Part shown: piece by piece, positions 3,523-30,378 of the stretch
How positions within the stretch are numbered: the stretch's first letter is position 1
Layout: each line of letters opens with the position of its first letter
Sequence record: MW630116.1
From: Escherichia phage vB_EcoM-ZQ3
Direction: 5' to 3' (one strand)
DNA length: 64,000 bases
Made by a program: the position numbers and the translations under genes
Notes under the pieces: model-generated
Database searches by the model: none
What the model was told of the DNA's origin: nothing
The model's input: the letters and a program-made list of their open reading frames with translations, nothing else

Positions 3523-4209
3523 ATGAAACTGTCTAAAGATACTATCGCTATTCTGAAAAACTTTGCCTCTATTAACTCCGGCATTCTGCTGAGTCAAGGT
3601 AAATTTATTATGACTCGTGCAGTTAATGGCACCACTTATGCGGAAGCAAATATCTCTGATGAAATTGATTTTGACGTAGCACTTTATGATTTGAATAGCT
3701 TCTTAAGCATTTTGAGTCTAGTGTCTGATGATGCCGAAATTTCAATGCACACCGATGGCAATATTAAAATTGCAGATACACGTTCCACGGTTTATTGGCC
3801 TGCCGCTGACAAGAGCACCATTGTTTTTCCTAATAAGCCAATTCAATTCCCAGTGGCTTCTGTGATTACTGAAATTAAAGCCGAAGACCTTCAACAATTG
3901 CTTCGAGTTTCACGTGGTCTTCAGATTGATACAATTGCTATTACAAATAAAGATGGTAAAATTGTTATCAATGGCTATAATAAAGTTGAAGATTCTGGAC
4001 TAACCCGTCCTAAGTATTCTTTGACTCTTACCGATTATGACGGTTCTAACAATTTTAACTTCGTAATCAATATGGCTAATATGAAAATCCAGCCAGGTAA
4101 CTATAAAGTAATGTTGTGGGGAGCTGGTGATAAAGTTGCAGCCAAGTTTGAAAGCCCTCAAGTAAGTTATGTTATTGCGATGGAAGCCGATTCTACTCAC
4201 GACTTCTAA
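3523..4209 (+). CDS. 45: sliding clamp gp45
   Basis: 228 aa from ATG 3523 (RBS aaaggaa); N-terminus MKLSKDT... matches recalled T4 gp45. Confidence 0.93.
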   Translation: MKLSKDTIAILKNFASINSGILLSQGKFIMTRAVNGTTYAEANISDEIDFDVALYDLNSFLSILSLVSDDAEISMHTDGNIKIADTRSTVYWPAADKSTIVFPNKPIQFPVASVITEIKAEDLQQLLRVSRGLQIDTIAITNKDGKIVINGYNKVEDSGLTRPKYSLTLTDYDGSNNFNFVINMANMKIQPGNYKVMLWGAGDKVAAKFESPQVSYVIAMEADSTHDF

Positions 4210-4212
4210 GTC

Positions 4213-4239
4213 AAAGCTTTACGTTTAATGTAGTACTAT
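4213..4239 (+). promoter_or_regulatory. putative MotA-dependent middle promoter upstream of gene 44, followed by a GGAGGA-gaaa-TCCTCC hairpin (4243-4258)
   Basis: aaaGCTTTA box, 12-nt gap, tactat -10. Confidence 0.4.
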
Positions 4240-4284
4240 TATGGAGGAGAAATCCTCCAGTTTAATGATAATGAGGAAAATTAC

Positions 4285-5247
4285 ATGATTACTATCAATT
4301 CCAAAGAACACATTCTAGAACAGAAATATCGTCCTTCTTCCATTGACGAATGTATTCTGCCTGCGTATGACCATGAAACATTCAAGTCTTTAGTATCTAA
4401 AGGAAAACTTCCTCATATTATTTTGCACTCTCCTTCTCCTGGCACAGGTAAAACAACAGTAGCAAAAGCATTATGTAATGATATCAATGCCGAAATGATG
4501 TTTGTCAACGGTTCTGATTGTAAGATTGATTTTGTGCGTGGTCCGTTAACCGCATTCGCTCGTTCAGTCTCAATGGAAGGCAAGCCTAAAGTTATTGTTA
4601 TTGATGAATTTGACCGTAGTGGCCTCGCCGAATCACAACGTCACCTTCGTACGTTTATGGAAGAATTCTCTAGTAACTGCTCTATTGTTATTACTGCTAA
4701 CAACATCGATGGAATTATTGAACCATTACGTAGTCGTTGTCGAGTTATCGAATTCGGACGTCCAACCGAAGAAGATAAAATCTCGATGATGAAGAAAATG
4801 ATTCATCGTATGGTTGAAATCTGTAAGAACGAAAATATCGAAATCGCTGATATGAAAGTTGTTGCAGCTCTTGTTAAAAAGAACTTCCCGGACTTTCGTC
4901 GCACAATCGGTCAATTAGACCAGTACTCGTCTAAAGGTGTTCTTGATGCGGGTATTTTGTCTATCGTAACTAATGACCGTGGCACAGTCTCTGATGTTAT
5001 CGAAGCAATGAAGAACAAAGATATCAAACAGCTTCGTGCATTAGCTCCAAAATATGCCGCAGATTATTCATGGTTCATCGATAAATTAGTTTCAGAATGT
5101 TATGACCAAGTTGCACCTGGTAAAAGTATTATTTCGCTTTATGAAATTGCAGGCGAAAACAATAAGTTTCATGGATTAGCAAGTAATATTGAATTACATG
5201 TTATGTATATGCTTCTTCAACTGACCTGCGAACTGACTTGGAAATAA
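4285..5247 (+). CDS. 44: clamp loader large subunit gp44 (AAA+)
   Basis: 320 aa; Walker A GTGKTT, Walker [12 protein letters not shown] motif. Confidence 0.95.
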
Positions 5248-5248
5248 T

Positions 5249-5812
5249 ATGAACTTATTCGATGATGACGTCCAGCTTAACGAGCACCAAATTGCATGGA
5301 AGTCTAATGACGCTGATGCGATTCAAAAATGTGCTGATATGTTTAAAGAAAAACCTGAGAATGAATTCTTTAAAATCATTAATGCTATTAATGAAAAGAA
5401 ATCTATGTCAATTGCTCAGGTTGACTACTCAAAATTTATGGTTGAGAACTCATTATCCCAGTTCCCAGAATGTATGCCAGCTGTTTACATGATGAACTTA
5501 GTCGGTTCTGAATTAAGTGATGAAGCGCACTTCAACTATATGATGGCGGCAATTCCGCGTGGTCGTCGATTCTCTAAATGGGCTAAACTAGTCGAAGACA
5601 CTTCAGAGTTACTAGTTATCAAACTGTTGATGAAACATTACACAATCAACATGAATGATGCTACCGAGTATAAGCGGCTCCTTGAAAAAAATAACAAGTT
5701 GCCAATAGTCCTTAAAGAACTGAAGGCCATGGTCACTGATGAGTTTCTCAAAGAAGTTACAAAAAATGTGAAAGAACAAAAACAATTTAAAAAATTAGCA
5801 TTGGAATGGTAA
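5249..5812 (+). CDS. 62: clamp loader small subunit gp62
   Basis: 187 aa, same size as T4 gp62, directly after gene 44. Confidence 0.88.
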
Positions 5813-5814
5813 AA

Positions 5815-6183
5815 ATGATTGAAATTAAATTGAAGAACCCTGAAGATTTTCTAAAAGTCAAAGAGACTTTGACCCGTATGGGCATCGCTAATAACAAGGA
5901 TAAAGTCCTTTACCAGTCTTGTCATATCCTCCAAAAGCAAGGTAAGTACTATATCGTCCACTTTAAAGAAATGCTGCGTATGGACGGACGTCAGGTTGAT
6001 ATTGATGGTGAAGACTATCAGCGACGTGATTCGATTGCTCAGTTGCTTGAAGACTGGGGATTGATTGTTATTGAAGACTCTGCTCGTGAAGATCTGTTTG
6101 GCCTGACTAATAACTTCCGTGTTATCTCTTTTAAACAGAAAGATGACTGGACTTTGAAAGCAAAATATACAATTGGTAATTAA
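5815..6183 (+). CDS. regA: translational repressor RegA
   Basis: 122 aa from ATG 5815 (MIEIKLK...), matches recalled T4 RegA; TAA/ATG adjacency with gene 62. Confidence 0.88.
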   Translation: MIEIKLKNPEDFLKVKETLTRMGIANNKDKVLYQSCHILQKQGKYYIVHFKEMLRMDGRQVDIDGEDYQRRDSIAQLLEDWGLIVIEDSAREDLFGLTNNFRVISFKQKDDWTLKAKYTIGN

Positions 6184-6235
6184 AGCAATGGGACTTCGGT
6201 CCCATTTGGAGTATAATAAGTTCATCAACAAACAA

Positions 6236-6264
6236 AAGACAATAACTCGTCTAAAGGAAATTAA
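6236..6264 (+). promoter_or_regulatory. putative gp43 translational operator (small hairpin with AAUAACUC loop plus SD)
   Basis: gac-aataactc-gtc then aagga SD before the gene 43 ATG; resembles the recalled T4/RB69 gene 43 operator. Confidence 0.4.
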
Positions 6265-8976
6265 ATGAAAGAATTTTACTTAACGGTTGAACAGATTGGT
6301 GATTCAATTTTTGAACGTTACATCGATTCTAACGGCCGTGAACGTACTCGTGAAGTAGAATATAAACCATCACTGTTTGCTCATTGTCCAGAAAGTCAGG
6401 CTACGAAATATTTCGATATCTACGGTAAGCCGTGTACTCGTAAGTTGTTCGCCAATATGCGTGATGCCTCACAATGGATTAAACGCATGGAAGATATCGG
6501 ACTTGAAGCACTTGGCATGGACGATTTCAAATTGGCGTATTTGTCTGACACTTATAACTATGAAATCAAATACGACCATACAAAAATTCGTGTGGCTAAC
6601 TTCGACATCGAAGTAACATCTCCAGATGGGTTCCCTGAGCCGTCACAAGCAAAACATCCGATTGATGCTATCACCCATTATGACTCAATTGATGACAGGT
6701 TTTATGTATTTGACCTTTTGAATTCTCCATATGGTAATGTAGAAGAATGGTCTATTGAAATCGCTGCTAAGCTTCAAGAACAAGGCGGTGATGAAGTTCC
6801 ATCCGAAATTATCGACAAAATCATTTATATGCCGTTCGATAACGAAAAAGAATTGTTGATGGAATATCTCAACTTCTGGCAACAGAAAACTCCTGTCATT
6901 TTGACTGGATGGAACGTTGAGTCATTTGATATTCCATATGTGTATAACCGAATCAAGAATATTTTTGGCGAATCTACTGCGAAACGTTTATCACCACATC
7001 GCAAAACTCGTGTTAAAGTTATCGAAAACATGTATGGTTCTCGTGAAATCATTACATTGTTCGGTATCTCTGTTCTTGATTACATTGATCTTTACAAAAA
7101 ATTCTCTTTTACCAATCAACCGTCGTATTCTCTGGATTACATTTCAGAATTTGAATTGAACGTTGGTAAACTGAAATATGACGGCCCTATTTCTAAGCTT
7201 CGTGAAAGCAATCACCAACGATATATTTCTTATAACATTATCGACGTATATCGTGTATTGCAAATTGATGCTAAGCGTCAGTTCATCAACTTGAGTTTGG
7301 ACATGGGTTATTATGCTAAAATTCAGATTCAATCTGTGTTTAGCCCAATTAAAACATGGGATGCTATTATTTTTAATAGCCTTAAAGAGCAGAACAAGGT
7401 GATTCCACAAGGTCGTTCTCACCCGGTTCAACCTTATCCAGGCGCTTTTGTTAAGGAACCTATTCCAAATCGATACAAATATGTAATGAGTTTCGACCTT
7501 ACATCCCTGTATCCAAGTATTATTCGCCAAGTGAATATTAGCCCAGAAACAATAGCAGGAACGTTTAAAGTAGCTCCATTGCATGATTATATTAACGCTG
7601 TTGCTGAACGTCCTTCTGATGTGTACAGTTGTTCTCCTAACGGCATGATGTATTATAAAGACCGTGATGGTGTAGTTCCAACTGAAATCACTAAGGTCTT
7701 TAATCAACGTAAAGAACATAAAGGTTACATGCTTGCAGCTCAACGTAATGGTGAAATAATTAAAGAGGCATTGCATAATCCTAATCTTTCTGTTGACGAA
7801 CCATTAGATGTTGATTATCGTTTCGACTTCAGTGATGAGATTAAAGAAAAGATTAAAAAGTTGTCTGCTAAATCTCTTAATGAAATGTTGTTTAGAGCTC
7901 AACGTACTGAAGTTGCAGGTATGACTGCCCAAATTAACCGTAAATTGCTTATCAACTCACTTTATGGTGCACTTGGCAACGTTTGGTTCCGTTATTATGA
8001 TTTGCGTAATGCTACTGCAATCACAACATTTGGTCAAATGGCTTTACAGTGGATTGAACGTAAAGTTAATGAATATCTGAATGAAGTTTGTGGCACAGAA
8101 GGTGAAGCTTTCGTTCTTTATGGTGATACAGACTCTATTTACGTATCTGCTGATAAAATTATCGATAAGGTTGGTGAATCTAAATTCCGTGATACCAACC
8201 ATTGGGTAGACTTCTTAGATAAGTTTGCACGTGAACGTATGGAACCAGCTATTGATAGAGGTTTCCGTGAAATGTGTGAATACATGAACAATAAACAACA
8301 CTTAATGTTCATGGACCGAGAAGCTATCGCTGGGCCTCCACTCGGTTCTAAAGGTATTGGTGGATTCTGGACTGGTAAGAAACGTTATGCATTAAACGTG
8401 TGGGATATGGAAGGTACTCGTTACGCTGAGCCTAAACTCAAAATCATGGGTCTAGAGACTCAGAAATCTTCGACTCCTAAAGCAGTACAGAAAGCTCTTA
8501 AAGAATGTATTCGTCGTATGCTTCAAGAAGGTGAAGAATCATTACAAGAATATTTTAAAGAGTTTGAAAAAGAATTCCGTCAATTGAATTATATTAGCAT
8601 CGCGTCGGTATCTTCTGCGAATAACATTGCTAAATATGATGTAGGTGGATTCCCTGGTCCCAAATGCCCGTTCCATATTCGTGGAATTCTGACGTATAAC
8701 CGTGCTATCAAAGGTAATATCGATGCACCGCAAGTTGTAGAAGGTGAAAAAGTATATGTTCTGCCTTTACGTGAAGGAAACCCATTCGGTGATAAATGTA
8801 TCGCATGGCCTTCTGGTACTGAAATCACAGATTTAATTAAAGACGATGTACTTCACTGGATGGACTACACTGTTCTCCTTGAGAAGACATTTATTAAACC
8901 ACTTGAAGGATTCACATCAGCAGCGAAACTCGATTATGAGAAGAAAGCATCTCTGTTCGATATGTTCGATTTTTGA
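6265..8976 (+). CDS. 43: DNA polymerase gp43 (family B, with 3-prime to 5-prime exonuclease)
   Basis: 903 aa; exo motifs FDIE/YNIIDVY, pol motifs SLYPS, KILLNSLYG-like, YGDTDS; sequence matches my recollection of RB69 gp43. Confidence 0.97.
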   Translation: MKEFYLTVEQIGDSIFERYIDSNGRERTREVEYKPSLFAHCPESQATKYFDIYGKPCTRKLFANMRDASQWIKRMEDIGLEALGMDDFKLAYLSDTYNYEIKYDHTKIRVANFDIEVTSPDGFPEPSQAKHPIDAITHYDSIDDRFYVFDLLNSPYGNVEEWSIEIAAKLQEQGGDEVPSEIIDKIIYMPFDNEKELLMEYLNFWQQKTPVILTGWNVESFDIPYVYNRIKNIFGESTAKRLSPHRKTRVKVIENMYGSREIITLFGISVLDYIDLYKKFSFTNQPSYSLDYISEFELNVGKLKYDGPISKLRESNHQRYISYNIIDVYRVLQIDAKRQFINLSLDMGYYAKIQIQSVFSPIKTWDAIIFNSLKEQNKVIPQGRSHPVQPYPGAFVKEPIPNRYKYVMSFDLTSLYPSIIRQVNISPETIAGTFKVAPLHDYINAVAERPSDVYSCSPNGMMYYKDRDGVVPTEITKVFNQRKEHKGYMLAAQRNGEIIKEALHNPNLSVDEPLDVDYRFDFSDEIKEKIKKLSAKSLNEMLFRAQRTEVAGMTAQINRKLLINSLYGALGNVWFRYYDLRNATAITTFGQMALQWIERKVNEYLNEVCGTEGEAFVLYGDTDSIYVSADKIIDKVGESKFRDTNHWVDFLDKFARERMEPAIDRGFREMCEYMNNKQHLMFMDREAIAGPPLGSKGIGGFWTGKKRYALNVWDMEGTRYAEPKLKIMGLETQKSSTPKAVQKALKECIRRMLQEGEESLQEYFKEFEKEFRQLNYISIASVSSANNIAKYDVGGFPGPKCPFHIRGILTYNRAIKGNIDAPQVVEGEKVYVLPLREGNPFGDKCIAWPSGTEITDLIKDDVLHWMDYTVLLEKTFIKPLEGFTSAAKLDYEKKASLFDMFDF

Positions 8977-9016
8977 TATAATGTCATGGACGGTAAACTA
9001 ATTAAATGAGAGAAAT

Positions 9017-9652
9017 ATGAAAACTACTCCTATTACTATCGCTATTGACGCAATCATAAAACAAGCTTCTTCTTTGGCCGCTATGGCCAAAGTAATTAGT
9101 CAAAACCCTGCTCGTTATAATGCTATTCTAGAAACTCTTCGACGCCCAGGACTTAGTAATTATGAAAGCCGAGTAATTATTACAGGTGTTGGTAAGAATG
9201 CTAATATTGCAACTAAAGCTTCTGAGACATTTGCTTCACTCGGTATCCCGAGTATGTACTTGAACACTGGGCATTATTCTCACGGTGATGCAGGATTCAT
9301 TGCGCCTAATGATGTGTTGATTCATATTAGTCGTTCTGGTAAAACTGAAGAAATGATAGGCGTGGCTAAGCATCTTAAAATGATTCGTCCGAACGTCAAA
9401 CAGATTCTGTTGCATTGTAACCCGGACATTCCACAAGAATACGAAGCTCTTTTTGATTATACGTTCTGTACAGGCATCGCAGTAGAGGTTGATGAGAATT
9501 CTCTGGCTCCGACCATGTCCACTACATTGTTGTTAGCGCTTATCGATACGTTTGCTATCAACCTTTCGTCTGAACGTGGATTTACCTCTAATGACTTCCT
9601 TAAGTTCCACCCTGGCGGTGCACTAGGTGCCATGTTACGAGGCGAACAATGA
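9017..9652 (+). CDS. SIS-domain sugar-phosphate isomerase, KdsD/GutQ-like D-arabinose-5-phosphate isomerase (no CBS domains)
   Basis: VGKNANIATKASETFASLGIPS...HGD...ISRSGKT and LAPTMSTT...FHPGGALG closely parallel the KdsD SIS core, including conserved Lys and His. Confidence 0.8.
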   Translation: MKTTPITIAIDAIIKQASSLAAMAKVISQNPARYNAILETLRRPGLSNYESRVIITGVGKNANIATKASETFASLGIPSMYLNTGHYSHGDAGFIAPNDVLIHISRSGKTEEMIGVAKHLKMIRPNVKQILLHCNPDIPQEYEALFDYTFCTGIAVEVDENSLAPTMSTTLLLALIDTFAINLSSERGFTSNDFLKFHPGGALGAMLRGEQ

Positions 9653-9792
9653 AAGCAATAACAATAGGACTTTTACTATTGATGCTTGTCATGACTATCT
9701 ACTGGAGCTTAACGGCTCCAGTAATGATTCCGACTCTTATAATCGGATGGATTATGATTGGACTACAAGCAAAGTATGAATGCTTTAACTAG
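9649..9792 (+). CDS. possible 47-aa small membrane protein
   Basis: ATGA overlap with upstream stop; hydrophobic sequence; below the track size cutoff. Confidence 0.35.
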   Translation: MKAITIGLLLLMLVMTIYWSLTAPVMIPTLIIGWIMIGLQAKYECFN

Positions 9793-9833
9793 AATAGTGT
9801 ACAATACTCCTACTTACCAATGAGGACCACAAC

Positions 9834-11522
9834 ATGAAAAAAGCTGTTATTCTTGGTGCTGGACTGGCAACTCGTTTGTATCCAATAACGCATCATATTC
9901 CTAAGGTGCTTGTTAACTATAAACAAGACACTATTCTGAGCAATTTGTATACAATTTATTCTGACCTTGGCGCAGACGAAATTATTGTAGTAGTTCATTC
10001 AAAATTTGCTGAAACTGTTCGAGCTTATTGTGAGCAAGAAGGGTTCAATGTGACTATTCGTACAGTTGATGAAGCGTATGGTTCTGCTTATGCTCTTGCT
10101 AAATTACACAAAGATTTAAACGGCCATAATGTAATTGTTAACTGGTGTGATATTATTCCTGATTTTGGTTCGTGGTCTTGGAATGTTAACGCAATCTATG
10201 TTAAGGGTGACGAATGTCGATATAATTTCGACGGTGAAAATATCACTAATGTAGGTTCAACAGGTGGTAATGTTGTAGGAATTTATCAGTTCAAAGACTG
10301 GGAATTCTATATGGGTTCTACTGATGAGGAAATTCATGAATACTGCAAAGGACGTGATTTCGTAGAATTCCTTTACGGCAGCGCATTCAATAAATCAGAG
10401 CTTATGAATATCATCGACCTTGGTGATATGCCTAAACTTGAAAAAGCTCATGAAGTTCGTGAACTTAATCGTAGTTTTAATGCAGTTGAAATTGGCGAAG
10501 AAACGGTAACAAAGATTGCTTTAACAGAACAGGGCGTTGCACTTCAAAAAGATGAAGTCAATTGGTATAAGAAAGTTAAATCAGATTCAGTTCCACGGAT
10601 TGTAAGTTATCATCCTGGCGGCCACTTTATTATGGAACGTATTAAAGGTAAGCCGGCATTTGAATATATTAAATCCAAATCAAGTCTTGCTCGTCCACAA
10701 ATTGTTGATGCAATTTTAGATGCACTGAAATTCAGCACAGACACTTATTTTGTAAGTCCTGAAACTGTTCGTCGTGATTTCACTAAAGAGTTCTATACGA
10801 AAGTTATTGATCGTTGTGAAAGTATTCAACCATTGATTGATTCATTTGGTAAAATCACACATGTGAACTACACTAAGATTGGGCGTCTGAAGCCAATGCT
10901 GAAACAAGCTTTAGAACACCTTATTCGTTATCATAACCGTTCTCAGGGACAGTACTCTGTTATTCATGGTGACCCGAACTTCAGTAATACTATGATTACT
11001 GATAATGGTGAAGTCAAGTTTATCGACCCTCGTGGATATTTTGGTGAAACCAAGATTTATGGGCCAAAATTGTATGATGAAGCTAAAGTGCTTTATGCTG
11101 TTTCAGGTTATGATGAATTCAACGCTAATCCGACTTGGGGACAGTTTACTATTGATGAAACAACTTGTAATGTGACTATTAACATCAATCCGTTAGTTTA
11201 CAAATATGGAAAGATGAGTTCGTTTAACGAGTATCATCATTTGGCAGTGGCAATTATCTGGATTGCATTGGGTGGTTATTTCAAGAATAATCCACTTAAA
11301 GCGGTAGCCGCATATTATAAAGGTATGGAACTTCTGACTAAGCAATTACGTAACATGGGCCGTGTACTTCAGGACGGCTCTATTAGTTATGACGTAGCAG
11401 AACCTGTAACGGCTACTCTGATTACAAAAAATCCTGGTAAATGGGTACTAACTGATAAAGAAACTGGTGTTTCTTATCGTCCAATCGGTGGCGATATCAC
11501 TCATCAATGGGAACGAATCTAA
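9834..11522 (+). CDS. bifunctional sugar kinase / sugar-1-phosphate nucleotidyltransferase
   Basis: N-terminus AVILGAGLATRLYPIT (RmlA/GlmU-type NTase motif); C-terminal HGDPNFSNTMIT and KFIDPRG (APH/choline-kinase-like Brenner motif). Confidence 0.8.
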   Translation: MKKAVILGAGLATRLYPITHHIPKVLVNYKQDTILSNLYTIYSDLGADEIIVVVHSKFAETVRAYCEQEGFNVTIRTVDEAYGSAYALAKLHKDLNGHNVIVNWCDIIPDFGSWSWNVNAIYVKGDECRYNFDGENITNVGSTGGNVVGIYQFKDWEFYMGSTDEEIHEYCKGRDFVEFLYGSAFNKSELMNIIDLGDMPKLEKAHEVRELNRSFNAVEIGEETVTKIALTEQGVALQKDEVNWYKKVKSDSVPRIVSYHPGGHFIMERIKGKPAFEYIKSKSSLARPQIVDAILDALKFSTDTYFVSPETVRRDFTKEFYTKVIDRCESIQPLIDSFGKITHVNYTKIGRLKPMLKQALEHLIRYHNRSQGQYSVIHGDPNFSNTMITDNGEVKFIDPRGYFGETKIYGPKLYDEAKVLYAVSGYDEFNANPTWGQFTIDETTCNVTININPLVYKYGKMSSFNEYHHLAVAIIWIALGGYFKNNPLKAVAAYYKGMELLTKQLRNMGRVLQDGSISYDVAEPVTATLITKNPGKWVLTDKETGVSYRPIGGDITHQWERI

Positions 11523-11908
11523 TGCACCGTGTAGAAAACATGCTTAATCTTTGTTTTGATGTCGATGATTGTATAACAGAGTGGAATAACAATCGTGATT
11601 ACGTGAACTTCAAACCAGACGTCGAAATGGTGTCTGCCATTAATGCCCTGTATGATGCAGGGCATACCATAACGCTTTACACTGCTCGCGGTATGAAGTC
11701 AGTCGGTCCTGGTCGTATAGCAATTGACATTCTCCCAAGTCTGATTCAGAACTTGGCAAACATTGGATTGAAGTACCATAATTTGCTAACACATAAACCA
11801 GTATATGATTGGATTATCGACGATAAAGCTATGCGTCCTGACGAATTCAAAGCTCTTATGAATAAAGGCGAATTCGAAACATTTAAATCATATAAACCGA
11901 ATCTATAA
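11522..11908 (+). CDS. small HAD-superfamily phosphatase
   Basis: TAATG overlap; candidate HAD motifs FDVDD (I), LYTARG (II), K in THKPVYD (III), IIDDK (IV). Confidence 0.65.
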   Translation: MHRVENMLNLCFDVDDCITEWNNNRDYVNFKPDVEMVSAINALYDAGHTITLYTARGMKSVGPGRIAIDILPSLIQNLANIGLKYHNLLTHKPVYDWIIDDKAMRPDEFKALMNKGEFETFKSYKPNL

Positions 11909-11964
11909 TAATTTAAGTAAGACCTGCAAAAACCATCGCGTCAATTAACGTGAGATGCAAAAAA

Positions 11965-13125
11965 ATGAATACCTTTAAAATCGGAACGAATTTTGATTTA
12001 GCTCTTCTTGATAAAATCGTAGAGCTCAATAAAACTTATCCTAATAGCTTGATAAATGAAGTATACGGCTCTACAAGAGAAATGGCTTTTGTAGCAGCCA
12101 GACCTGATTTTAGGCTTCCTGACGTTGACAAAAAGATGTTAGAAGATTATGTTAAACGTTGTAACGAATTAGGTATTTGCTTTAACTATACACTCAACAC
12201 GATAAATCCTGGTTCAAAAAGAGAACTAGTTGAGTGGAAGAAGAAAGCTATTCAGGATTATGTTCAGTATCTTTGGTCAATAGGCGTATGGCGTATTACT
12301 ATCGCTAACCCTGTTGTTATGGAAATTGTTCGTGAAGTCAATAAAGACATTGAGATTGAAGTTTCAACAATTCTACATGTTGATGCTGTAACTCAAATCA
12401 AATACTTGCATGACCAGTATAATATCAAAAAGGTCTGCTGTGGAATTCATAAGAACCGTTCAGTTTCTTTCCTGAAGCGTGCAGCAGAGTTTTGCAATAA
12501 GAACAATATAATATTTGAAGTTCTCGTAAATGAATTCTGTTCTAATGCCGGTAAAGGGTATACAACACATTGTAGCTATCGTGACTCTTGCTATATTTTC
12601 CATAGCACAGATGTTACAGTAGATGATGCTAAATCCTTAAATGGATATCCAATGCAACACTGCATTAAAGCTCGTGATACAGACCCATTTAACTGGTTGA
12701 GAACTCGTTTTGTTCGTCCTCAAGATTTGAAACTTTATAATGATATTGGTATCACTCAATTCAAAGTTTCAGGACGTACAGGTAGCACAGACTACATTTT
12801 GAAAGTTCTTGAAGCTTATGCTTCTGAAAAATTTGAAGGTAATTTGTTGGAATTGTGGAAGCCTTTAGAGACCATTTTCACTCTTGAAAATGAGACCGAG
12901 TTTTCACATACGGTAAATATTGAAACCTCTTTGTTAGATGGCTTTTTAGAAAAAAGGTGGTTCAAACATCCAGATTTCGATTGTGCTAATGAAATCTGCG
13001 GGACGACGTGTACATATTGTGAAAGATATTATAAACGTCAGTTATCTAAAAATGGGTTATCAGAAAACTCTATATCTATTATTGATATAACTAACTCTGA
13101 CGACGCTTTGAGGTACCCAGAATGA
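11965..13125 (+). CDS. Cys-rich enzyme of uncertain family (possibly peptidase-U32-like Fe-S TIM-barrel protein)
   Basis: 386 aa from ATG 11965; cysteine clusters EFCSNAGKGYTTHCSYRDSC and C-terminal CANEICGTTCTYC; QFKVSGR resembles the U32 KIEGR-type motif; assignment tentative. Confidence 0.75.
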   Translation: MNTFKIGTNFDLALLDKIVELNKTYPNSLINEVYGSTREMAFVAARPDFRLPDVDKKMLEDYVKRCNELGICFNYTLNTINPGSKRELVEWKKKAIQDYVQYLWSIGVWRITIANPVVMEIVREVNKDIEIEVSTILHVDAVTQIKYLHDQYNIKKVCCGIHKNRSVSFLKRAAEFCNKNNIIFEVLVNEFCSNAGKGYTTHCSYRDSCYIFHSTDVTVDDAKSLNGYPMQHCIKARDTDPFNWLRTRFVRPQDLKLYNDIGITQFKVSGRTGSTDYILKVLEAYASEKFEGNLLELWKPLETIFTLENETEFSHTVNIETSLLDGFLEKRWFKHPDFDCANEICGTTCTYCERYYKRQLSKNGLSENSISIIDITNSDDALRYPE

Positions 13126-13283
13126 TTTCTAGAAAAACTTTTAACCACCAACTTAATGAAGAGATTTTGACTACGAAAATTAACAGCAACGAACAAATTC
13201 TTAAAAAGGCCCTGATGGGCCTGTTTGAAACTAAAGCGGCTAAAGTGATTAAAGAAACCTGTTCAACTAGAATACTATGCTGA
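13122..13283 (+). CDS. possible 53-aa small protein
   Basis: ATGA overlap with upstream stop; no homology recognised. Confidence 0.3.
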   Translation: MISRKTFNHQLNEEILTTKINSNEQILKKALMGLFETKAAKVIKETCSTRILC

Positions 13284-13359
13284 TGCATTTCTTCATAGTG
13301 TTCTTGGAAGTATCGATGCTGAAGCTTTACGTTATATCAACATTGTCAAGAAATTCAAA

Positions 13360-13385
13360 TAAGCTTTACGAATTGAGTATATAAT
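13360..13385 (+). promoter_or_regulatory. putative MotA-dependent middle promoter
   Basis: taaGCTTTA box, 11-nt gap, TATAAT 13380-13385; aagctttacg also at 13322. Confidence 0.45.
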
Positions 13386-13404
13386 AAATTGTATTGAGGT
13401 AAAC

Positions 13405-14121
13405 ATGGGAAAACATAACACAATGAAATATATCAAAGCCGCAGATTTTCAAACCGCATTTAAAGCAGTCAATCGTGAAATTTTAGAAAACCCGGAATTC
13501 GTAACTGATTCTCGTATTGGACGTTGTAATGAAATTGGGTCTATGACAGTAGTTGTTGATACCCCTTCATCATTCAAAATGACCGACCCACGTATTAATC
13601 GCATCTCTTATGAATATGCTGAAGATTTCTGGAAGTTTATGATTTCTGGTGGTACCAACGCAGAAGAAGCGTTTAAGGCATATCCTAATGTCGCTAAATT
13701 TATTTCTAAACCAAAATCAGATGTTTTGCCTGCAAACTTCAACACTTTCTATGGTCCACGAATTGCGGCCCAGTTACCAGCTCTTCTAAAAGAACTTAAA
13801 GAGAAGCCTAACTCTCGAAGAGTTGTGTTCCAAATTCTAGAAAGTTCTGATCAGGCTTTGCTTGATTCAGACGAAACGCTTGAATATCCATGTACTGACT
13901 CAGTGACTTATTATATTCGTGATGGTAAGCTTTATACCCACTGTCATATGCGTTCTCAGAACTGTGCTGTTGTTATGCAGTTGGATTTTTATCTCCAAGG
14001 AAAATTACTTCATTATATCGCTAACGAATGCGGTGTAGAAGTTGGTGATTATACTCATACCATGGTAAGTGCCCATGTGTTTGAACGTGATTTTGATTAT
14101 GTTAAAGGATTCCTTGACTAA
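13405..14121 (+). CDS. thymidylate-synthase-fold pyrimidine-modifying enzyme, divergent dCMP hydroxymethylase (gene 42)-like
   Basis: 238 aa; NSRRVVFQI, YPCTDSVTYYIRDGKL and SAHVFERDF parallel the T4 gp42/TS motifs SRRGIMIY, FMCTNTVQYLIRDKKI, SLHVYSRHF. Confidence 0.8.
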   Translation: MGKHNTMKYIKAADFQTAFKAVNREILENPEFVTDSRIGRCNEIGSMTVVVDTPSSFKMTDPRINRISYEYAEDFWKFMISGGTNAEEAFKAYPNVAKFISKPKSDVLPANFNTFYGPRIAAQLPALLKELKEKPNSRRVVFQILESSDQALLDSDETLEYPCTDSVTYYIRDGKLYTHCHMRSQNCAVVMQLDFYLQGKLLHYIANECGVEVGDYTHTMVSAHVFERDFDYVKGFLD

Positions 14122-15020
14122 TGGCTATTTTCCGCGTACCTATCTTGAGTATGCGGTCTTATGAAACTGGACAGTATGCTATCCTTAAGGATGGCAACTT
14201 CCAACTTCATTTGCACCGTGCTAATCCGGGTGATGTGATTACATATCCACGTAATGCATCTGATATTAAAGAATGCGAACGTCTTTTTCCAGAATTTAAG
14301 TTTGTTCCATTATGGTATAAAGATAACGCGTATAACACTCGTAAATATTTCTGGTCTGAAAATGAATTTGTGGTTGATTCATTAATTGCTTATTATGATT
14401 GTGATTTTCTAATCACAGATATCACTGGATATGACGGTGCTTTTGATGTGGAATTCAATTTCAATATCACTGCAGACCCTAATAAACCACGTTTTTATAT
14501 TGACGAATTCTTAAAAACCGATATGTTGTCGGTTAATCGTTCACTTCAAACTACTGTGTTGAATAAACGTCAAAAGGAAGTGCTGGTTAACGCTGGTGCC
14601 GATGGTAATAAGATTATCGTAACCCAGAAAGTTATACGTCCTTCCATCATGCAGCGTCTTGTAGGTGATTTGGCTCCTATTCATCTAGATGGTATTTTTC
14701 ATCCATTTCGAATTAGTGACCCGTGCTATCGTTTTGAACAAGTGGTTGAATGTGCAATTCAATTAGGCCAACCGCTTTATATAACCGATCCAAATAATAG
14801 CTTCGACAGAAATAAGTATCCTGAAGAAGCGCTGATTCGAATTTTTAAACCAACTAAAACCGAGTACTATCAAATTCTTAAAGGACGTCCAAAGATTCAA
14901 TATTTCGAAAATCCTGAAGAAGTATTCCATCCAGGTCTTGGTGAGTTCATCTACTTTAATGCTTTAATTTCTTCGCCGTATAATATACCTAAATACGAAG
15001 ATGTCGTAATCGAGGAATAA
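14121..15020 (+). CDS. hypothetical protein (299 aa), function unknown
   Basis: TAATG overlap with the TS-like gene; no recognised motifs. Confidence 0.75.
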   Translation: MAIFRVPILSMRSYETGQYAILKDGNFQLHLHRANPGDVITYPRNASDIKECERLFPEFKFVPLWYKDNAYNTRKYFWSENEFVVDSLIAYYDCDFLITDITGYDGAFDVEFNFNITADPNKPRFYIDEFLKTDMLSVNRSLQTTVLNKRQKEVLVNAGADGNKIIVTQKVIRPSIMQRLVGDLAPIHLDGIFHPFRISDPCYRFEQVVECAIQLGQPLYITDPNNSFDRNKYPEEALIRIFKPTKTEYYQILKGRPKIQYFENPEEVFHPGLGEFIYFNALISSPYNIPKYEDVVIEE

Positions 15021-15021
15021 A

Positions 15022-15570
15022 ATGGCTAAAATTATTTTAGTAGATGGCCCGGATAATGCCGGTAAAACAACTTTCATTAATGACATAATGGAAATTAGTG
15101 AAAGATATGTAAAGATTGATTTCCCTAAACGAACAGTTGACGGACGTTTCGATGTTAAGTCTCGAAATGAAGTTGGCTGTTTCGAAACGATGTTGAATTA
15201 TTTAGACCCTACTAAGATTTATCTGTTAGATCGTGGATATATTAGTAACTGGGTTTACGGACGTATTCGACAAGATGCGGACTCGGTTCTTGACGTTTAT
15301 GAACAGGATTATGTTCGTCTTTGCCAAAACCATGATGTGTTCACAATTATTTTAACACGTAACGAAATGACTGAAAGTTTTGAAGACGACCTTATTACTT
15401 TGTCTTCATTCGGTTTTAATACAGTAATTTCATATTTTGAAGAGTTTGCAATCCATAACGAAATCCAAACGTATCAATTACTTAATCATGATGGTGCTAA
15501 CAAAGTTATAGGATTTAATGCAAGCGAACGTAATAATTTGATTACAGAAATTATCAAATGGGCTCGTTAA
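15022..15570 (+). CDS. P-loop kinase (nucleotide/nucleoside kinase-like)
   Basis: Walker A GPDNAGKTT near N-terminus; LDRGYISNWVYG resembles dNK/TMK-type motif. Confidence 0.8.
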   Translation: MAKIILVDGPDNAGKTTFINDIMEISERYVKIDFPKRTVDGRFDVKSRNEVGCFETMLNYLDPTKIYLLDRGYISNWVYGRIRQDADSVLDVYEQDYVRLCQNHDVFTIILTRNEMTESFEDDLITLSSFGFNTVISYFEEFAIHNEIQTYQLLNHDGANKVIGFNASERNNLITEIIKWAR

Positions 15571-15590
15571 GAGCCTGTTTAAAGTTTTAA
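15561..15590 (+). terminator. possible weak terminator hairpin spanning the kinase stop codon
   Basis: ggctc-gttaa-gagcc followed by T-rich tract. Confidence 0.35.
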
Positions 15591-15616
15591 ATGCTGTATA
15601 ACCCTTAGTATATAAT
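15589..15616 (+). promoter_or_regulatory. possible middle promoter upstream of uvsX
   Basis: aaaTGCTgtA box-like, TATAAT at 15611-15616. Confidence 0.35.
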
Positions 15617-15669
15617 CGTCTTATCTTTTAAACATGAGTAAAATATAATGATGCCTATGGAAAAATACA

Positions 15670-16842
15670 ATGTCTGATTTAAAATCTCGTCTGATTAAAG
15701 CTTCTACTTCTAAAATGACTGCAGACTTGACTAAGTCTAAGTTGTTTAATAATCGCGATGAAGTCCCTACTCGTATTCCGATGTTGAATATTGCATTAGG
15801 TGGTGCACTGAATGCTGGGTTGCAATCAGGCTTAACTATTTTTGCTGCTCCTTCTAAACACTTTAAAACGTTGTTTGGACTGACCATGGTTGCAGCATAT
15901 ATGAAGAAATATAAAGATGCAATTTGTTTGTTCTATGATTCAGAATTTGGTGCTTCAGAATCTTATTTTCGTTCGATGGGTGTTGATTTAGACCGTGTAG
16001 TTCATACTCCGATTCAATCTGTCGAACAACTTAAAGTTGATATGACTAATCAGCTTGACGCGATTGAACGCGGTGATAAAGTTATTATCTTTATCGATTC
16101 AATTGGTAATACTGCATCTAAGAAAGAAACCGAAGATGCGTTGAACGAGAAAGTTGTAGGTGATATGTCTCGTGCTAAGGCACTTAAATCTCTGTTCCGC
16201 ATTGTGACTCCTTATCTGACTATTAAAGATATTCCGTGTGTTGCAATCAACCATACAGCAATGGAAATTGGCGGACTATATCCTAAAGAGATTATGGGTG
16301 GTGGTACAGGTATTCTTTACTCTGCTAACACTGTATTCTTTATCTCTAAACGTCAGGTTAAAGAAGGTACAGAATTGACCGGTTATGACTTCACGTTGAA
16401 AGCAGAAAAATCTCGTACAGTTAAAGAGAAATCTACTTTCCCAATCACAGTCAATTTCGATGGCGGTATCGACCCATTCAGTGGCTTGTTAGAAATGGCA
16501 ACTGAAATTGGTTTTGTAGTTAAGCCTAAAGCCGGGTGGTATGCTCGAGAATTCCTTGACGAAGAAACAGGCGAAATGATTCGTGAAGAGAAATCATGGC
16601 GTGCTAAAGCTACTGATTGTGTAGAATTCTGGGGACCGTTGTTTAAACACAAACCTTTCCGAGATGCAATTGAAACTAAATATAAACTAGGTGCTATCTC
16701 TTCTATTAAAGAAGTCGATGACGCTGTTAACGACCTTATTAATTGCAAAGCAACAACTAAAGTTCCGGTTAAAACTTCTGATGCTCCGTCTGCAGCAGAT
16801 ATAGAAAACGACCTTGACGAAATGGAAGATTTCGATGAATAA
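15670..16842 (+). CDS. uvsX: RecA-like recombinase UvsX
   Basis: 390 aa; RecA-fold ATPase; T4 UvsX size and position. Confidence 0.93.
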   Translation: MSDLKSRLIKASTSKMTADLTKSKLFNNRDEVPTRIPMLNIALGGALNAGLQSGLTIFAAPSKHFKTLFGLTMVAAYMKKYKDAICLFYDSEFGASESYFRSMGVDLDRVVHTPIQSVEQLKVDMTNQLDAIERGDKVIIFIDSIGNTASKKETEDALNEKVVGDMSRAKALKSLFRIVTPYLTIKDIPCVAINHTAMEIGGLYPKEIMGGGTGILYSANTVFFISKRQVKEGTELTGYDFTLKAEKSRTVKEKSTFPITVNFDGGIDPFSGLLEMATEIGFVVKPKAGWYAREFLDEETGEMIREEKSWRAKATDCVEFWGPLFKHKPFRDAIETKYKLGAISSIKEVDDAVNDLINCKATTKVPVKTSDAPSAADIENDLDEMEDFDE

Positions 16843-19290: not shown

Positions 19291-19659
19291 ATGAAAAAAT
19301 TAATCGCTTTAGCAATGGTATTTGGATTAACCGGATGTGGTGCCCACGGCTTTATCCCTAATAACGTTGGCCAACTGATTTACAATCCGAATGTTAAACA
19401 ATATGAACAACCTAAAGTTGAAGTGGAAGACCCGGTTACTGTAGGTAATCGAATGATTCAAGCTGATGCTCATGCTCAACGTTATCGTGATTCTGATACC
19501 GTAGCTATGTCAAAAGAACAGCGCGTTAAAGAACATTGCTTACAGGCTACTGAAATCGCATTCATTCGCTATGTTGAAACAACCGGTAAAGAGCCTACCC
19601 AGAAACAAATCGCGAATAACTACGTCCGGTGTATTGAACGTTTAAACAAATTTAATTAA
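19291..19659 (+). CDS. lipoprotein
   Basis: signal peptide with lipobox LTGC (MKKLIALAMVFGLTGC). Confidence 0.75.
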   Translation: MKKLIALAMVFGLTGCGAHGFIPNNVGQLIYNPNVKQYEQPKVEVEDPVTVGNRMIQADAHAQRYRDSDTVAMSKEQRVKEHCLQATEIAFIRYVETTGKEPTQKQIANNYVRCIERLNKFN

Positions 19660-19720: not shown

Positions 19721-19969
19721 ATGGAATTATTCGTAGCTAGTTCAGTAGCTGTTTTAATCGCAGGTATTGGTTCAATCATCATTTACATGTTGCCTTGGGT
19801 AATCGCACTTATTCGTGGCACAAAAAACACAACAGCAATCTTCTTTGTATCTTTACTCTTTAACTGGACGATGATTGGTTGGATTGGAACTTTAATTTGG
19901 TCTATCGTTGCCGAAAAGAAATCTGCTCAGCAGCCTCAACAAGTAATTATTATTCGCGAAAAAGAATAA
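19721..19969 (+). CDS. small inner-membrane protein, superinfection-immunity (Imm)-like
   Basis: 82 aa, two hydrophobic segments; LPWVIALIRG...WTMIGWIGTLIWSI resembles the Imm superinfection-immunity family pattern as I recall it. Confidence 0.6.
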   Translation: MELFVASSVAVLIAGIGSIIIYMLPWVIALIRGTKNTTAIFFVSLLFNWTMIGWIGTLIWSIVAEKKSAQQPQQVIIIREKE

Positions 19970-23014: not shown

Positions 23015-23536
23015 ATGGCACACTTTAACGAATGTTCACAACTTATTTCTGGTGTTGATAAAGCAGAAGAAGCTTATTTTAATGCTCTGATTCACGAAGA
23101 TAAAGACCCACTGCAGGTAATGCTTGATATGCAGAAATCTTTACAGGTTCGTCTGGCAAATGACAAGCCTGAACATAACAAACATCCTGATGAATTGGCT
23201 ACTGCTGGTGATGTTGTTGATTGGCTGCGTAATCAGAAAGATTATATTGATGATGAATTCCGTGAACTGCTGACTTCACTTGGTGGTATGAGCAATGGTG
23301 AAAAGGCCGCTAGCTCTGTATGGAAGCCGTGGAAGGCCCAGCATGCTGAATATCGAAATCGTCGTATCGATGAACTGTCTCCTGAAGACCAGCTTGAAAT
23401 TAAATTCGAGATGATTGATATTCTGCATTTCGTTCTAAATATGTTCCAAGGTCTAGGACTTTCTGCTGAAGAAATCTTCAAACTGTATTACCTGAAAAAC
23501 CAACACAACTTTGAACGCCAGGATAATGGTTACTAA
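23015..23536 (+). CDS. 56: dCTP pyrophosphatase gp56 (MazG-like)
   Basis: starts MAHFNEC; DPLQVMLDMQ, ETAGDVV, EIKFE and FKLYYLKN match recalled T4 gp56. Confidence 0.9.
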   Translation: MAHFNECSQLISGVDKAEEAYFNALIHEDKDPLQVMLDMQKSLQVRLANDKPEHNKHPDELATAGDVVDWLRNQKDYIDDEFRELLTSLGGMSNGEKAASSVWKPWKAQHAEYRNRRIDELSPEDQLEIKFEMIDILHFVLNMFQGLGLSAEEIFKLYYLKNQHNFERQDNGY

Positions 23537-29366: not shown

Positions 29367-29861
29367 ATGAATATCAATACTATGGCTACTTACATCCTGA
29401 AAGACGAAAAACAAATCAACTGGTACGGTGCTTCAGTGCGAGCTTATGAAAAGTTTTGTGAAATTTTAGGTGCCACTCAAGGTAATAGTTTCACTATTGT
29501 TAACTTCATCAAACAAGTTGAAGGCCCTTGGTTATTCTTAGAAATTAAAAATTCATATGGTACAATTTCTACTACCGCCCTTCCAAGCACCGACTTTGAA
29601 CTGTTGATTGAAGAAGCACCTGTTAAAGATGGTCTCCACTTTGATATGGATATCGCTTGTATGTACGGTACTCTGATTAAGCCTATTGAGCCTACTGATT
29701 TGTTGTGTAAAGCTGTTTCAATTCGACGACCATTCGCTGGACCGGTAAGTGGCTGGGTAACTGACCAGTGGATTGAAGATGGGGTTGAACTTCTGAACGT
29801 TGTTCATGCCGGTGATTTTAGTGTGGTTCCACGTAGTGCAGTAGTTAATATTCTAAATTAA
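29367..29861 (+). CDS. early protein, paralog family member 1
   Basis: C-terminus SGWVTDQWIEDGVELLNVVHAGDFSVVP shared with the next two ORFs. Confidence 0.75.
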   Translation: MNINTMATYILKDEKQINWYGASVRAYEKFCEILGATQGNSFTIVNFIKQVEGPWLFLEIKNSYGTISTTALPSTDFELLIEEAPVKDGLHFDMDIACMYGTLIKPIEPTDLLCKAVSIRRPFAGPVSGWVTDQWIEDGVELLNVVHAGDFSVVPRSAVVNILN

Positions 29862-29922: not shown

Positions 29923-30378
29923 ATGATTACTATTGGTGAAATTAAGCGTGTATCAACTGCATCCCGGTCTAAAGCCACAGGTCGTCTGGTTGAAGTGGTA
30001 GGACTTCGCACAAATGGCATGGGACGCATTAAAGAAGTTAAAGTTCGAATCATTCCTAGTTTTGGACGTCAGGATACTCAGCACGCTTACGTAAGTCCTA
30101 AATTCTTGGAAACTCCTGTGAGCGCTCATTTTGCTTCTACTGAACCTAATGCACAGTTCAAATGGGCCTTGTGTAAAGGTGTTGAATTCCAGACTGATAA
30201 AGAATTTGACTTCATCGATGAATACGGTTATCCAAGCAAAACTGATACTATGTGTGGCTTCATTAGTGACCAATGGGTTGAAGATGGTGAAAAGTTATAC
30301 AATATCGTATTCTTAGGTGACTTCCGAGTTGTTAAAGAATCTGAAATCACTCGTTATGTGTCTCCTCGTAAAGCTTAA
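29923..30378 (+). CDS. early protein, paralog family member 2
   Basis: ASRSK..G.LVEV, FKW.L and FISDQWVEDG.KLYNIVF motifs shared with member 3. Confidence 0.75.
   Translation: MITIGEIKRVSTASRSKATGRLVEVVGLRTNGMGRIKEVKVRIIPSFGRQDTQHAYVSPKFLETPVSAHFASTEPNAQFKWALCKGVEFQTDKEFDFIDEYGYPSKTDTMCGFISDQWVEDGEKLYNIVFLGDFRVVKESEITRYVSPRKA

Follow-up and report, generated by a model that had tools for sequence, protein, structure and literature searches.

Which base modification is encoded between genes 43 and uvsX of Escherichia phage vB_EcoM-ZQ3, and what does each gene contribute to it? This question was addressed in a stretch of 64,000 nucleotides (nt) from sequence record MW630116.1, referred to here as the window, in which positions 9017 to 15570 hold a gene content different from that of phage T4. 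An initial annotation had described this block as a self-contained module for an activated pentose and a hydroxymethyl-pyrimidine and had pointed to reports of arabinosylated 5-hydroxymethylcytosine (hmC) in RB69-like phages. Judging from its sequence, the cassette very probably represents the arabinosyl-5-hydroxycytosine (ara-5hoC, "Afh") DNA-hypermodification locus of RB69/HY126-like Mosigvirus. This identity is already known and was published in 2018 and in 2025–2026, and essentially nothing speaks against it. The second part of the question concerns a cassette gene of the Peptidase_U32 family (U32), which is tentatively proposed to encode an additional, O2-independent hydroxylase.

The cassette and the modified base

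Seven open reading frames (ORFs) are located on the + strand between the T4-like genes 43 and uvsX (9017–9652, 9834–11522, 11507–11908, 11950–13125, 13405–14121, 14121–15020 and 15022–15570), as initially annotated, together with two small ORFs (9649–9792 and 13122–13283). Profile and structure searches gave significant family or structure support for 7/7 of them, namely SIS, NTP_transferase with an APH-like kinase, HAD, Peptidase_U32, Thymidylat_synt, a GT-B fold and a thymidylate-kinase-like P-loop protein. The genes on either side follow the T4 order and resemble their T4 counterparts, in agreement with the initial annotation. Upstream, gp44, gp62 and RegA (79% identity to the T4 protein) are followed by gp43 (62%), and downstream UvsX (68%), gp40 (81%) and gp41 (86%) were found.

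Matches to the block at 95–99% identity were found in 154 phage records, most of them from RB69-like Mosigviruses, and at least 80% of it was covered in 151 of these. Since it is kept at this level, it is no chance feature. The DNA identity to Escherichia phage HY126 is 98.5% over the whole block, and the GC content is like that of the surroundings. In RB69 (gp45–gp55 and gp3) and HY126 (Afh) the same genes are found in the same order, in the same slot between 43 and uvsX and with the same thymidylate synthase (TS) signature, and the identity to the HY126 proteins is 98–100%. No substantive difference was found, except that the ORFs of 562 and 299 amino acids (aa) are intact here and split in the RB69 GenBank record, the former through a sequencing error. 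Mono- or di-arabinosyl-5-hydroxycytosine has been reported in place of C in the virion DNA of RB69, HY126, Bas46/47 and NP (PMC13326640, PMC13390438).

The gene order of T4 at the same slot is 43 - imm.1 - imm - 42 - beta-gt - segA - uvsX. The gene content does differ here from imm-42-beta-gt, but the TS-fold gene and the 299-aa gene have the relative positions of T4 genes 42 and beta-gt; because of this placement they are positional counterparts and not entirely foreign. Homologs of T4 imm.1 (19297–19644, 33% identity) and imm (19721–19966, 64% identity) are located downstream of gene 41. The superinfection-immunity genes, which T4 carries between 43 and 42, are therefore relocated and not lost.

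The identity of the base depends on the TS-fold enzyme (13405–14121, + strand), the equivalent of RB69 gp48. It is 98% identical over 238 aa to the structures PDB 9IQC/9IR2 (E 8e-161), 98% identical also to PDB 9IQU, and 25% identical to T4 gp42. The signature of a flavin- and O2-dependent 5-hydroxy-dCMP synthase is present (E. coli ThyA numbering in brackets): the catalytic Cys162 in LEYPC (L143E), N186 in RSQN (D169N) and D194 in QLD (N177D). At the same sites T4 gp42 reads RSND...RND; it keeps Asp at the position of ThyA 169, the mark of a folate-dependent hydroxymethylase of the gp42 type, whereas the window enzyme has Asn.

The initial annotation and the original report (Thomas et al., 2018) had taken the protein for a divergent dCMP hydroxymethylase, with arabinosyl-5-hydroxymethylcytosine as the cassette product. 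The TS fold, the identity to T4 gp42 and the position of gene 42 fit this assignment, which can nevertheless hardly be upheld. The D169N exchange sets the enzyme apart from gp42, and the HY126 protein to which it is 98% identical was crystallised with flavin (PMC13326640). For RB69 DNA, arabinose was shown to be ether-linked to 5-hydroxycytosine by mass spectrometry, nuclear magnetic resonance (ether link), 18O2 labelling and heterologous expression, and the identity of 5-hydroxydeoxycytidine was backed by co-injection with a standard (Lee et al., 2026; PMC13326640). The RB69 gp48 TS homolog was described as a flavin-binding 5-hydroxy-dCMP synthase with oxygen derived from O2 (PMC13326640). 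The hydroxymethyl assignment is thus already refuted for RB69 and HY126, and it was termed erroneous in a later paper (PMC13390438). What stands of the initial annotation is the RB69-like hypermodification locus and its activated pentose, UDP-arabinofuranose, with 5-hydroxycytosine in place of hmC.

Arabinose donor, transferases and supply of dCMP

The branch leading to UDP-arabinofuranose is complete and consists of a SIS isomerase, a bifunctional kinase/nucleotidyltransferase and a HAD phosphatase, which are 99–100% identical to the HY126 proteins. The SIS protein (9017–9652, + strand; RB69 gp55 equivalent) is 100% identical to its HY126 counterpart. It matches Pfam SIS (1.7e-10), PHROG 5670 "arabinose 5-phosphate isomerase" (2e-116) and the NCBIfam models KpsF/GutQ (2e-32) and KdsD (1e-30), the latter two with scores under the equivalog cutoffs and in the SIS part of the profile only (positions 2–153 of 268). 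The SIS catalytic domain is common to KdsD/GutQ and the window protein, which has a length of 211 aa compared to 328 aa and does not contain the CBS pair. Although it is no full-length KdsD, it most likely works as an arabinose-5-phosphate isomerase, and it would convert ribulose-5-phosphate into arabinose-5-phosphate.

The 562-aa fusion (9834–11522, + strand; HY126 AfhE and RB69 gp52:53 equivalent; PHROG 4098, 3e-294) is 99.5% identical to the HY126 protein. Its N-terminal sugar-1-phosphate nucleotidyltransferase part matches Pfam NTP_transferase at residues 3–99 (9e-10), and its C-terminal kinase part has APH, fructosamine-kinase and EcKL matches at residues 238–410. The nucleotidyltransferase fold is shared with enzymes of the MurU/GlmU type, from which the fusion to an APH-like anomeric kinase distinguishes the window enzyme. 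The HAD-type phosphatase (HY126 AfhF and RB69 gp51 equivalent) opens mechanically at 11507, while its start is likely the ATG at 11522, giving a gene of 11522–11908 on the + strand. Residues 5–133 are identical to PDB 9IQW (E 8e-88), and the capsule biosynthesis phosphatase model TIGR01689 of NCBIfam was matched with 4e-13. As cited in PMC13326640, AfhE of HY126 acts as arabinose-5-phosphate 1-kinase and UDP-arabinose pyrophosphorylase, and AfhF strips the 5-phosphate from arabinofuranose 1,5-bisphosphate (He et al., 2026). With near-identical proteins in the window, the kinase domain would phosphorylate arabinofuranose-5-phosphate at C1, the HAD phosphatase would take off the 5-phosphate and the nucleotidyltransferase domain would form UDP-arabinofuranose.

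The 299-aa protein (14121–15020, + strand), listed as unknown in the initial annotation, was found by fold search to be a GT-B (GT4-like) glycosyltransferase, referred to here as GT1. It is the equivalent of RB69 gp46:47 and a putative base-proximal arabinosyltransferase, which would transfer the first arabinose onto the 5-hydroxyl. BLASTP detected no similarity to T4 beta-gt, and no homolog of a T4-type alpha-gt or beta-gt was found, as had been noted for the beta-glucosyltransferase. The second GT-B arabinosyltransferase (34620–35720, + strand; RB69 gp3/ORF003c equivalent) matches PDB 9IQZ/9IR0, entries titled "phage HY126 glycosyltransferase", over its full length with residues 1–366 (E 2.9e-249), as well as PHROG 8302, and would add the second arabinose. 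Its gene is located between topoisomerase gene 39 and rIIA, the position described in PMC13390438, so that one GT-B gene is found in the cassette and one between 39 and rIIA.

The last cassette gene (15022–15570, + strand) encodes a P-loop thymidylate-kinase-like nucleotide kinase, the RB69 gp45 equivalent, with the Walker A motif GPDNAGKT and a match to PHROG 761 "thymidylate kinase" (5e-45). PDB sequence searches with this kinase, the 299-aa protein and the U32 protein returned nothing useful. The TS homolog, GT1 and kinase genes are contiguous and translationally coupled, their junctions being an overlap of 1 nt and a spacer of 1 nt. A single ORF of about 560–605 aa encodes both GT1 and the kinase, in the order of the window, in four metagenomic loci (L038:2594-4411, L047:5237-7054, L049:5354-7003 and L052:5237-7054). 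The kinase may act together with the first glycosyltransferase. For single transferases no transfer was detected onto 5hoC-containing DNA, and the first arabinosylation might take place on the mononucleotide (PMC13326640). This option deserves testing because of the fusions of GT1 and kinase.

A dCTPase of the gp56 type is encoded at 23015–23536 (+ strand) and is 88% identical to JS98 gp56 over 173 aa. By the T4 paradigm and by comparison with RB69 gp28 (PMC13326640, Table 1) it probably supplies dCMP and removes dCTP. Because this gene and the second transferase are located elsewhere, the cassette is not self-contained as had been assumed. In the complete pathway, the dCTPase would provide dCMP, as expected from its family, the TS-fold enzyme would hydroxylate its C5 with flavin and O2, as shown in the literature for 98–100% identical proteins, and a phage dNMP kinase would convert 5-hydroxy-dCMP into the diphosphate, after which the base would end in DNA. 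These kinase and incorporation steps have likewise been shown, and RB69 gp159 was reported to phosphorylate the monophosphate (PMC13326640).

The glucosyl-hmC system of T4 shares the slot and the logic of this pathway, which leads from a dCTPase over a TS-fold C5 enzyme acting on dCMP and a kinase to the polymerase and the GT-B transferases. The T4 set consists of the gp56 dCTPase, the gp42 dCMP hydroxymethylase, the gp1 kinase and the alpha- and beta-glucosyltransferases. The window differs from T4 in the hydroxyl instead of the hydroxymethyl group, in flavin and O2 instead of methylene-tetrahydrofolate (D169N), in a phage-made arabinofuranose donor instead of host UDP-glucose, in the lack of similarity to beta-gt and in the additional U32 gene.

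The U32 protein and its neighbourhoods in other phages

The U32 gene, the RB69 gp50 equivalent, encodes a Cys-rich Fe-S protein with a match to Pfam Peptidase_U32 above the gathering threshold. Its ORF opens mechanically at GTG 11950, whereas the start is likely the ATG at 11965, giving a gene of 11965–13125 on the + strand. With 82–89% identity it is the best-conserved cassette protein across T4-like genera, compared to 74–83% for the TS homolog, 51–72% for GT1, 37–73% for the kinase and 65–84% for the DNA polymerase. The subfamily is small and comprises 459 clusters (50% identity) at E<=1e-30 among 1.84 billion representatives.

All functionally characterised U32 proteins have been implicated in hydroxylating aromatic carbons independently of O2, the oxygen being donated by prephenate: RlhA in 5-hydroxycytidine of 23S rRNA, TrhP in 5-hydroxyuridine of tRNA and UbiU/V in anaerobic ubiquinone synthesis (PMC10990095, PMC6599085). 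The window protein shares with RlhA, TrhP and UbiU-V the Pfam U32 domain, the TIM-barrel fold and the conserved Glu and Cys of the motif. In the hhalign alignment E190, C203 and C209 correspond to RlhA E161, C169 and C176, and they are invariant in 35 homologs. This Glu/Cys/Cys set is essential in TrhP (E162/C170/C177) and RlhA (E161/C169/C176) (PMC6599085). C233 aligns with the third UbiU-type Cys, and the fourth ligand of a 4Fe-4S site may be C192 or another Cys. An alignment against UbiU, UbiV, TrhP and RlhA with MAFFT --keeplength shifts the first motif Cys relative to hhalign, which was followed here.

The phage proteins form a separate subfamily, with marginal UbiU scores and an hhalign probability of 72% to RlhA. 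They carry an additional invariant C-terminal CX4CX3CX2C motif, they are phage-borne, and they are presumed to act on a deoxynucleotide instead of RNA or a quinone. The expected reaction of the window protein, pyrimidine C5 hydroxylation, is the chemistry in which RlhA is implicated.

In T4-like genera other than Mosigvirus, the U32 gene is separated from the TS homolog by an ORF of about 78 aa for an AroQ chorismate mutase. Such ORFs were found in L017, L019, L021–L028 and L030 (at about 11130–11780 in each, e.g. L030:11379-11624). The Pfam model CM_2 was passed by 8/8 of the small ORFs tested, seven from T4-like phages and one metagenomic (L046), with 36–55 bits compared to a cutoff of 27. 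The T4-like phages that carry it include those of Pectobacterium, Klebsiella, Yersinia, Edwardsiella, Serratia, Proteus and Enterobacter. By tblastn the ORF was detected in 52 phage records, with Klebsiella, Serratia, Yersinia, Enterobacter, Edwardsiella, Erwinia, Providencia, Pectobacterium, Morganella and Shewanella among the hosts.

In metagenomic phages a fusion of DAHP synthase and chorismate mutase was found one to two genes upstream of U32 (L040:8411-9430, L043:7302-8354, L045:8332-9384), and DAHP synthase alone adjoins U32 in two loci (L012:7145-7891, L029:9384-10127). Both the fusion and chorismate mutase lead toward prephenate. It is unusual for phages to carry enzymes for entry into the shikimate pathway and for prephenate formation. 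A reading of the DAHP_synth_1 neighbours as KDO8P synthases, which use arabinose-5-phosphate, was dropped, since the DAHP-synthase models score about three times higher (163 vs 53 bits) and a chorismate mutase part is fused to three of these proteins.

In viral contigs, 40 U32 loci were detected by a scan. An iterated hidden Markov model census was carried out for 32 loci from phages that are not T4-like, including a few near-duplicates, with 10 kb examined. GT1 was found in 19 of these loci, a thymidylate-kinase-like protein in 22, the nucleotidyltransferase/kinase in 11 and SIS in 9, but only one locus had a TS homolog, which carries canonical ThyA residues. GT1 directly adjoins U32 in eight of the census loci. 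The order in L032 is primase - dUTPase_2 NTPase - kinase - GT1 - U32 - GT47-like - PolIII-alpha, which reproduces the logic of the T4 pathway, U32 taking the place of the hydroxylase. Overall, the synteny of U32 within the modification cassette is kept across at least 10 phage genera.

Several neighbourhoods contain further genes. L009 (8001–14360) and L010, which has the same genes, encode a homolog with 48% identity to the U32 protein of the window. It is accompanied by a further, divergent U32 paralog and by NT5C, a nicotinamide mononucleotide transporter, a deoxynucleoside kinase, a nucleoside 2-deoxyribosyltransferase and a radical-SAM/SPASM protein; the contigs also carry genes of bacterial appearance, for a GH43/dockerin protein and glutamate-cysteine ligase. 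Radical-SAM/SPASM genes are also located near U32 in L008 and L014. In one metagenomic phage cluster a TnpB/IS605 OrfB (Cas12f-like) gene was found between the nucleotidyltransferase/kinase and U32 (L039:8695-9954).

Role of the U32 protein

On these grounds it is tentatively proposed that the U32 protein may be a prephenate-dependent, O2-independent C5 hydroxylase of a deoxycytidine nucleotide, which would provide a second route to 5-hydroxy-dCMP beside the TS-fold enzyme. The phage could then make 5hoC in its facultatively anaerobic host when this is grown without O2. The sister T4-like genera would add a chorismate mutase of their own beside U32, whereas the Mosigviruses would depend on the host enzymes PheA/TyrA. 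The uncultured phages with PolIII-alpha would use U32 and the fusion of DAHP synthase and chorismate mutase with the same glycosyltransferase and kinase, having no hydroxylase-type TS homolog within 10 kb. The pair of TS-fold and U32 enzymes can be likened to the aerobic/anaerobic pairs TrhO/TrhP and UbiI-H-F/UbiU-V of the host. T4 itself has such a pair in NrdAB/NrdDG.

Several observations weigh against this proposal. The Mosigviruses lack the chorismate mutase; no homolog of it was found anywhere in the window, where the unrelated 53-aa ORF occupies its position. TS homologs of the metagenomic phages may sit beyond the 10 kb examined. Direct in vitro hydroxylase activity has been reported for no U32 protein (PMC10990095). 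The Dhakaviruses infect E. coli and yet have no U32, so that U32 is dispensable for the modification. The expected correlation with host oxygen is partly upheld and remains imperfect: at most 3/57 of the Acinetobacter phage records with GT1 can also carry U32, in agreement with a strictly aerobic host, but U32 is also absent from the E. coli Dhakaviruses, and the clades are not independent samples. In favour of the proposal, JS98 and Acinetobacter phage Minot, which were examined directly, have neither U32 nor chorismate mutase. In JS98 (L003, a Dhakavirus) the cassette at 3781–8894 contains no SIS or U32 gene, imm is located beside 43, an unrelated 166-aa orf43 is present and the kinase gene lies upstream of the TS homolog; arabinose-5-phosphate is presumably drawn from the host KdsD/GutQ.

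Existing labels also point away from base hydroxylation. RB69 gp50 is listed as "sugar or heterocycle reductase" (Lee et al., 2026, Table 1; PMC13326640), and a record of a BASEL phage annotates the gene as "putative enzyme involved in UDP-arabinose biosynthesis". According to these labels U32 would belong to the sugar branch and serve the NDP-arabinose donor, and it does sit between the sugar and base genes in the window and co-occurs with SIS and the nucleotidyltransferase/kinase in 9–11 of the 32 metagenomic loci. This role is considered unlikely, since U32 is missing from DLP3, Minot and JS98, which do carry GT1 and the arabinose genes, and U32 is found beside GT1 and the kinase in at least eight loci without SIS or nucleotidyltransferase/kinase, one of them with UDP-galactopyranose mutase. 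Furthermore, the functionally characterised members are all tied to aromatic-carbon hydroxylation (PMC10990095, PMC6599085), and the adjacent chorismate mutase and DAHP synthase indicate prephenate and not pentose chemistry. A prephenate-dependent hydroxylase could still act on something other than dCMP, such as the cytosines of replicated DNA, RNA of the host or the phage, or a quinone. RlhA and TrhP do act on rRNA and tRNA and UbiU-V on quinone (PMC10990095, PMC6599085). This appears rather improbable in a phage with a gp56-type dCTPase, which needs a modified substitute for dCTP and hence hydroxylation before replication. Together with the neighbouring nucleotide enzymes (dCMP deaminase, thymidylate-kinase-like kinases, dUTPase_2, NT5C and deoxynucleoside kinase), this argues for a substrate at the nucleotide level, and the close adjacency to a DNA glycosyltransferase speaks against RNA or quinone.

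The historical family name and the GenBank labels "peptidase" or "collagenase-like protease" would suggest a true collagenase-type peptidase, or a function unrelated to DNA modification in a gene present by chance. Given the synteny across genera, the repeated adjacency to GT1 and kinase in unrelated phages and the conserved Fe-S and hydroxylase motif, this is extremely improbable, and peptidase activity of the family is itself widely doubted (PMC10990095, PMC6599085). That U32 might serve the TS-fold enzyme in electron transfer or as a flavin reductase was rejected, since it accompanies GT1 and kinase homologs in loci that have no TS homolog close by. With regard to the hydroxylase proposal, chorismate and prephenate are not mentioned by Lee et al. 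(2026; PMC13326640), no paper linking a phage chorismate mutase with U32 was found in the searchable literature, and a transposon-mutagenesis preprint (LC53, Bas46) contains no essentiality data for the cassette genes.

Further features and implications

Two small ORFs accompany the seven genes. The first (9649–9792, + strand; RB69 orf054c/JS98 orf44 equivalent) encodes a hydrophobic peptide of 47 aa (MKAITIGLLLLMLVMTIYWSLTAPVMIPTLIIGWIMIGLQAKYECFN) that is 58% identical to JS98 orf44 and annotated as a coding sequence in HY126. It is conserved in JS98 and RB69 between the isomerase and the nucleotidyltransferase/kinase and probably forms two transmembrane helices. The second (13122–13283, + strand; 53 aa) occupies the position of RB69 gp49 and matches PHROG 8601 (2.6e-27, positions 1–50 of 79). 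It does not match Pfam CM_2, and its reading as a decayed chorismate mutase was dropped, since no similarity was found in any frame.

A scan of 8800–15800 for sigma-70 promoters and terminators gave counts no higher than in shuffled sequence. Intergenic GCTT-type motifs about 12 nt 5' of TATAAT were found in 13340–13400 and 15575–15665, upstream of the TS homolog and uvsX (e.g. AAGCTTTACGAATTGAGTATATAAT), and resemble the MotA-dependent middle promoters of T4. In Escherichia phage NRG-P0074 (PQ480333.1) the cassette is matched in two pieces across about 7.25 kb with an annotated homing endonuclease inside, a parallel to segA in the corresponding T4 locus. Elsewhere in the window, a tandem duplication is suggested by the adjacent ORFs 29367–29861 and 29923–30378, since both have matches to Pfam motB (modifier of transcription).

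For the locus itself, the value of the result lies in the right annotation and in the correction of the base from 5-hydroxymethylcytosine to 5-hydroxycytosine. The only demonstrated hydroxylase of the pathway needs O2, whereas these phages attack gut Enterobacteria. The hydroxylase proposed for U32 is a specific hypothesis that can be tested cheaply and is backed by independent genomic contexts. If true, an anaerobic hydroxylase would account for U32 being the best-conserved gene of the cassette. It would also give the U32/prephenate hydroxylase family its first deoxynucleotide substrate and a handy assay, and it would mean that phages manipulate the shikimate pathway for DNA modification. In that case glycosylated hydroxy-pyrimidine DNA would have a second, widespread entry point in U32, and such DNA would be likely in several hundred lineages of uncultured phages, which matters for the evasion of restriction and CRISPR systems, for phage therapy and for sequencing artefacts.

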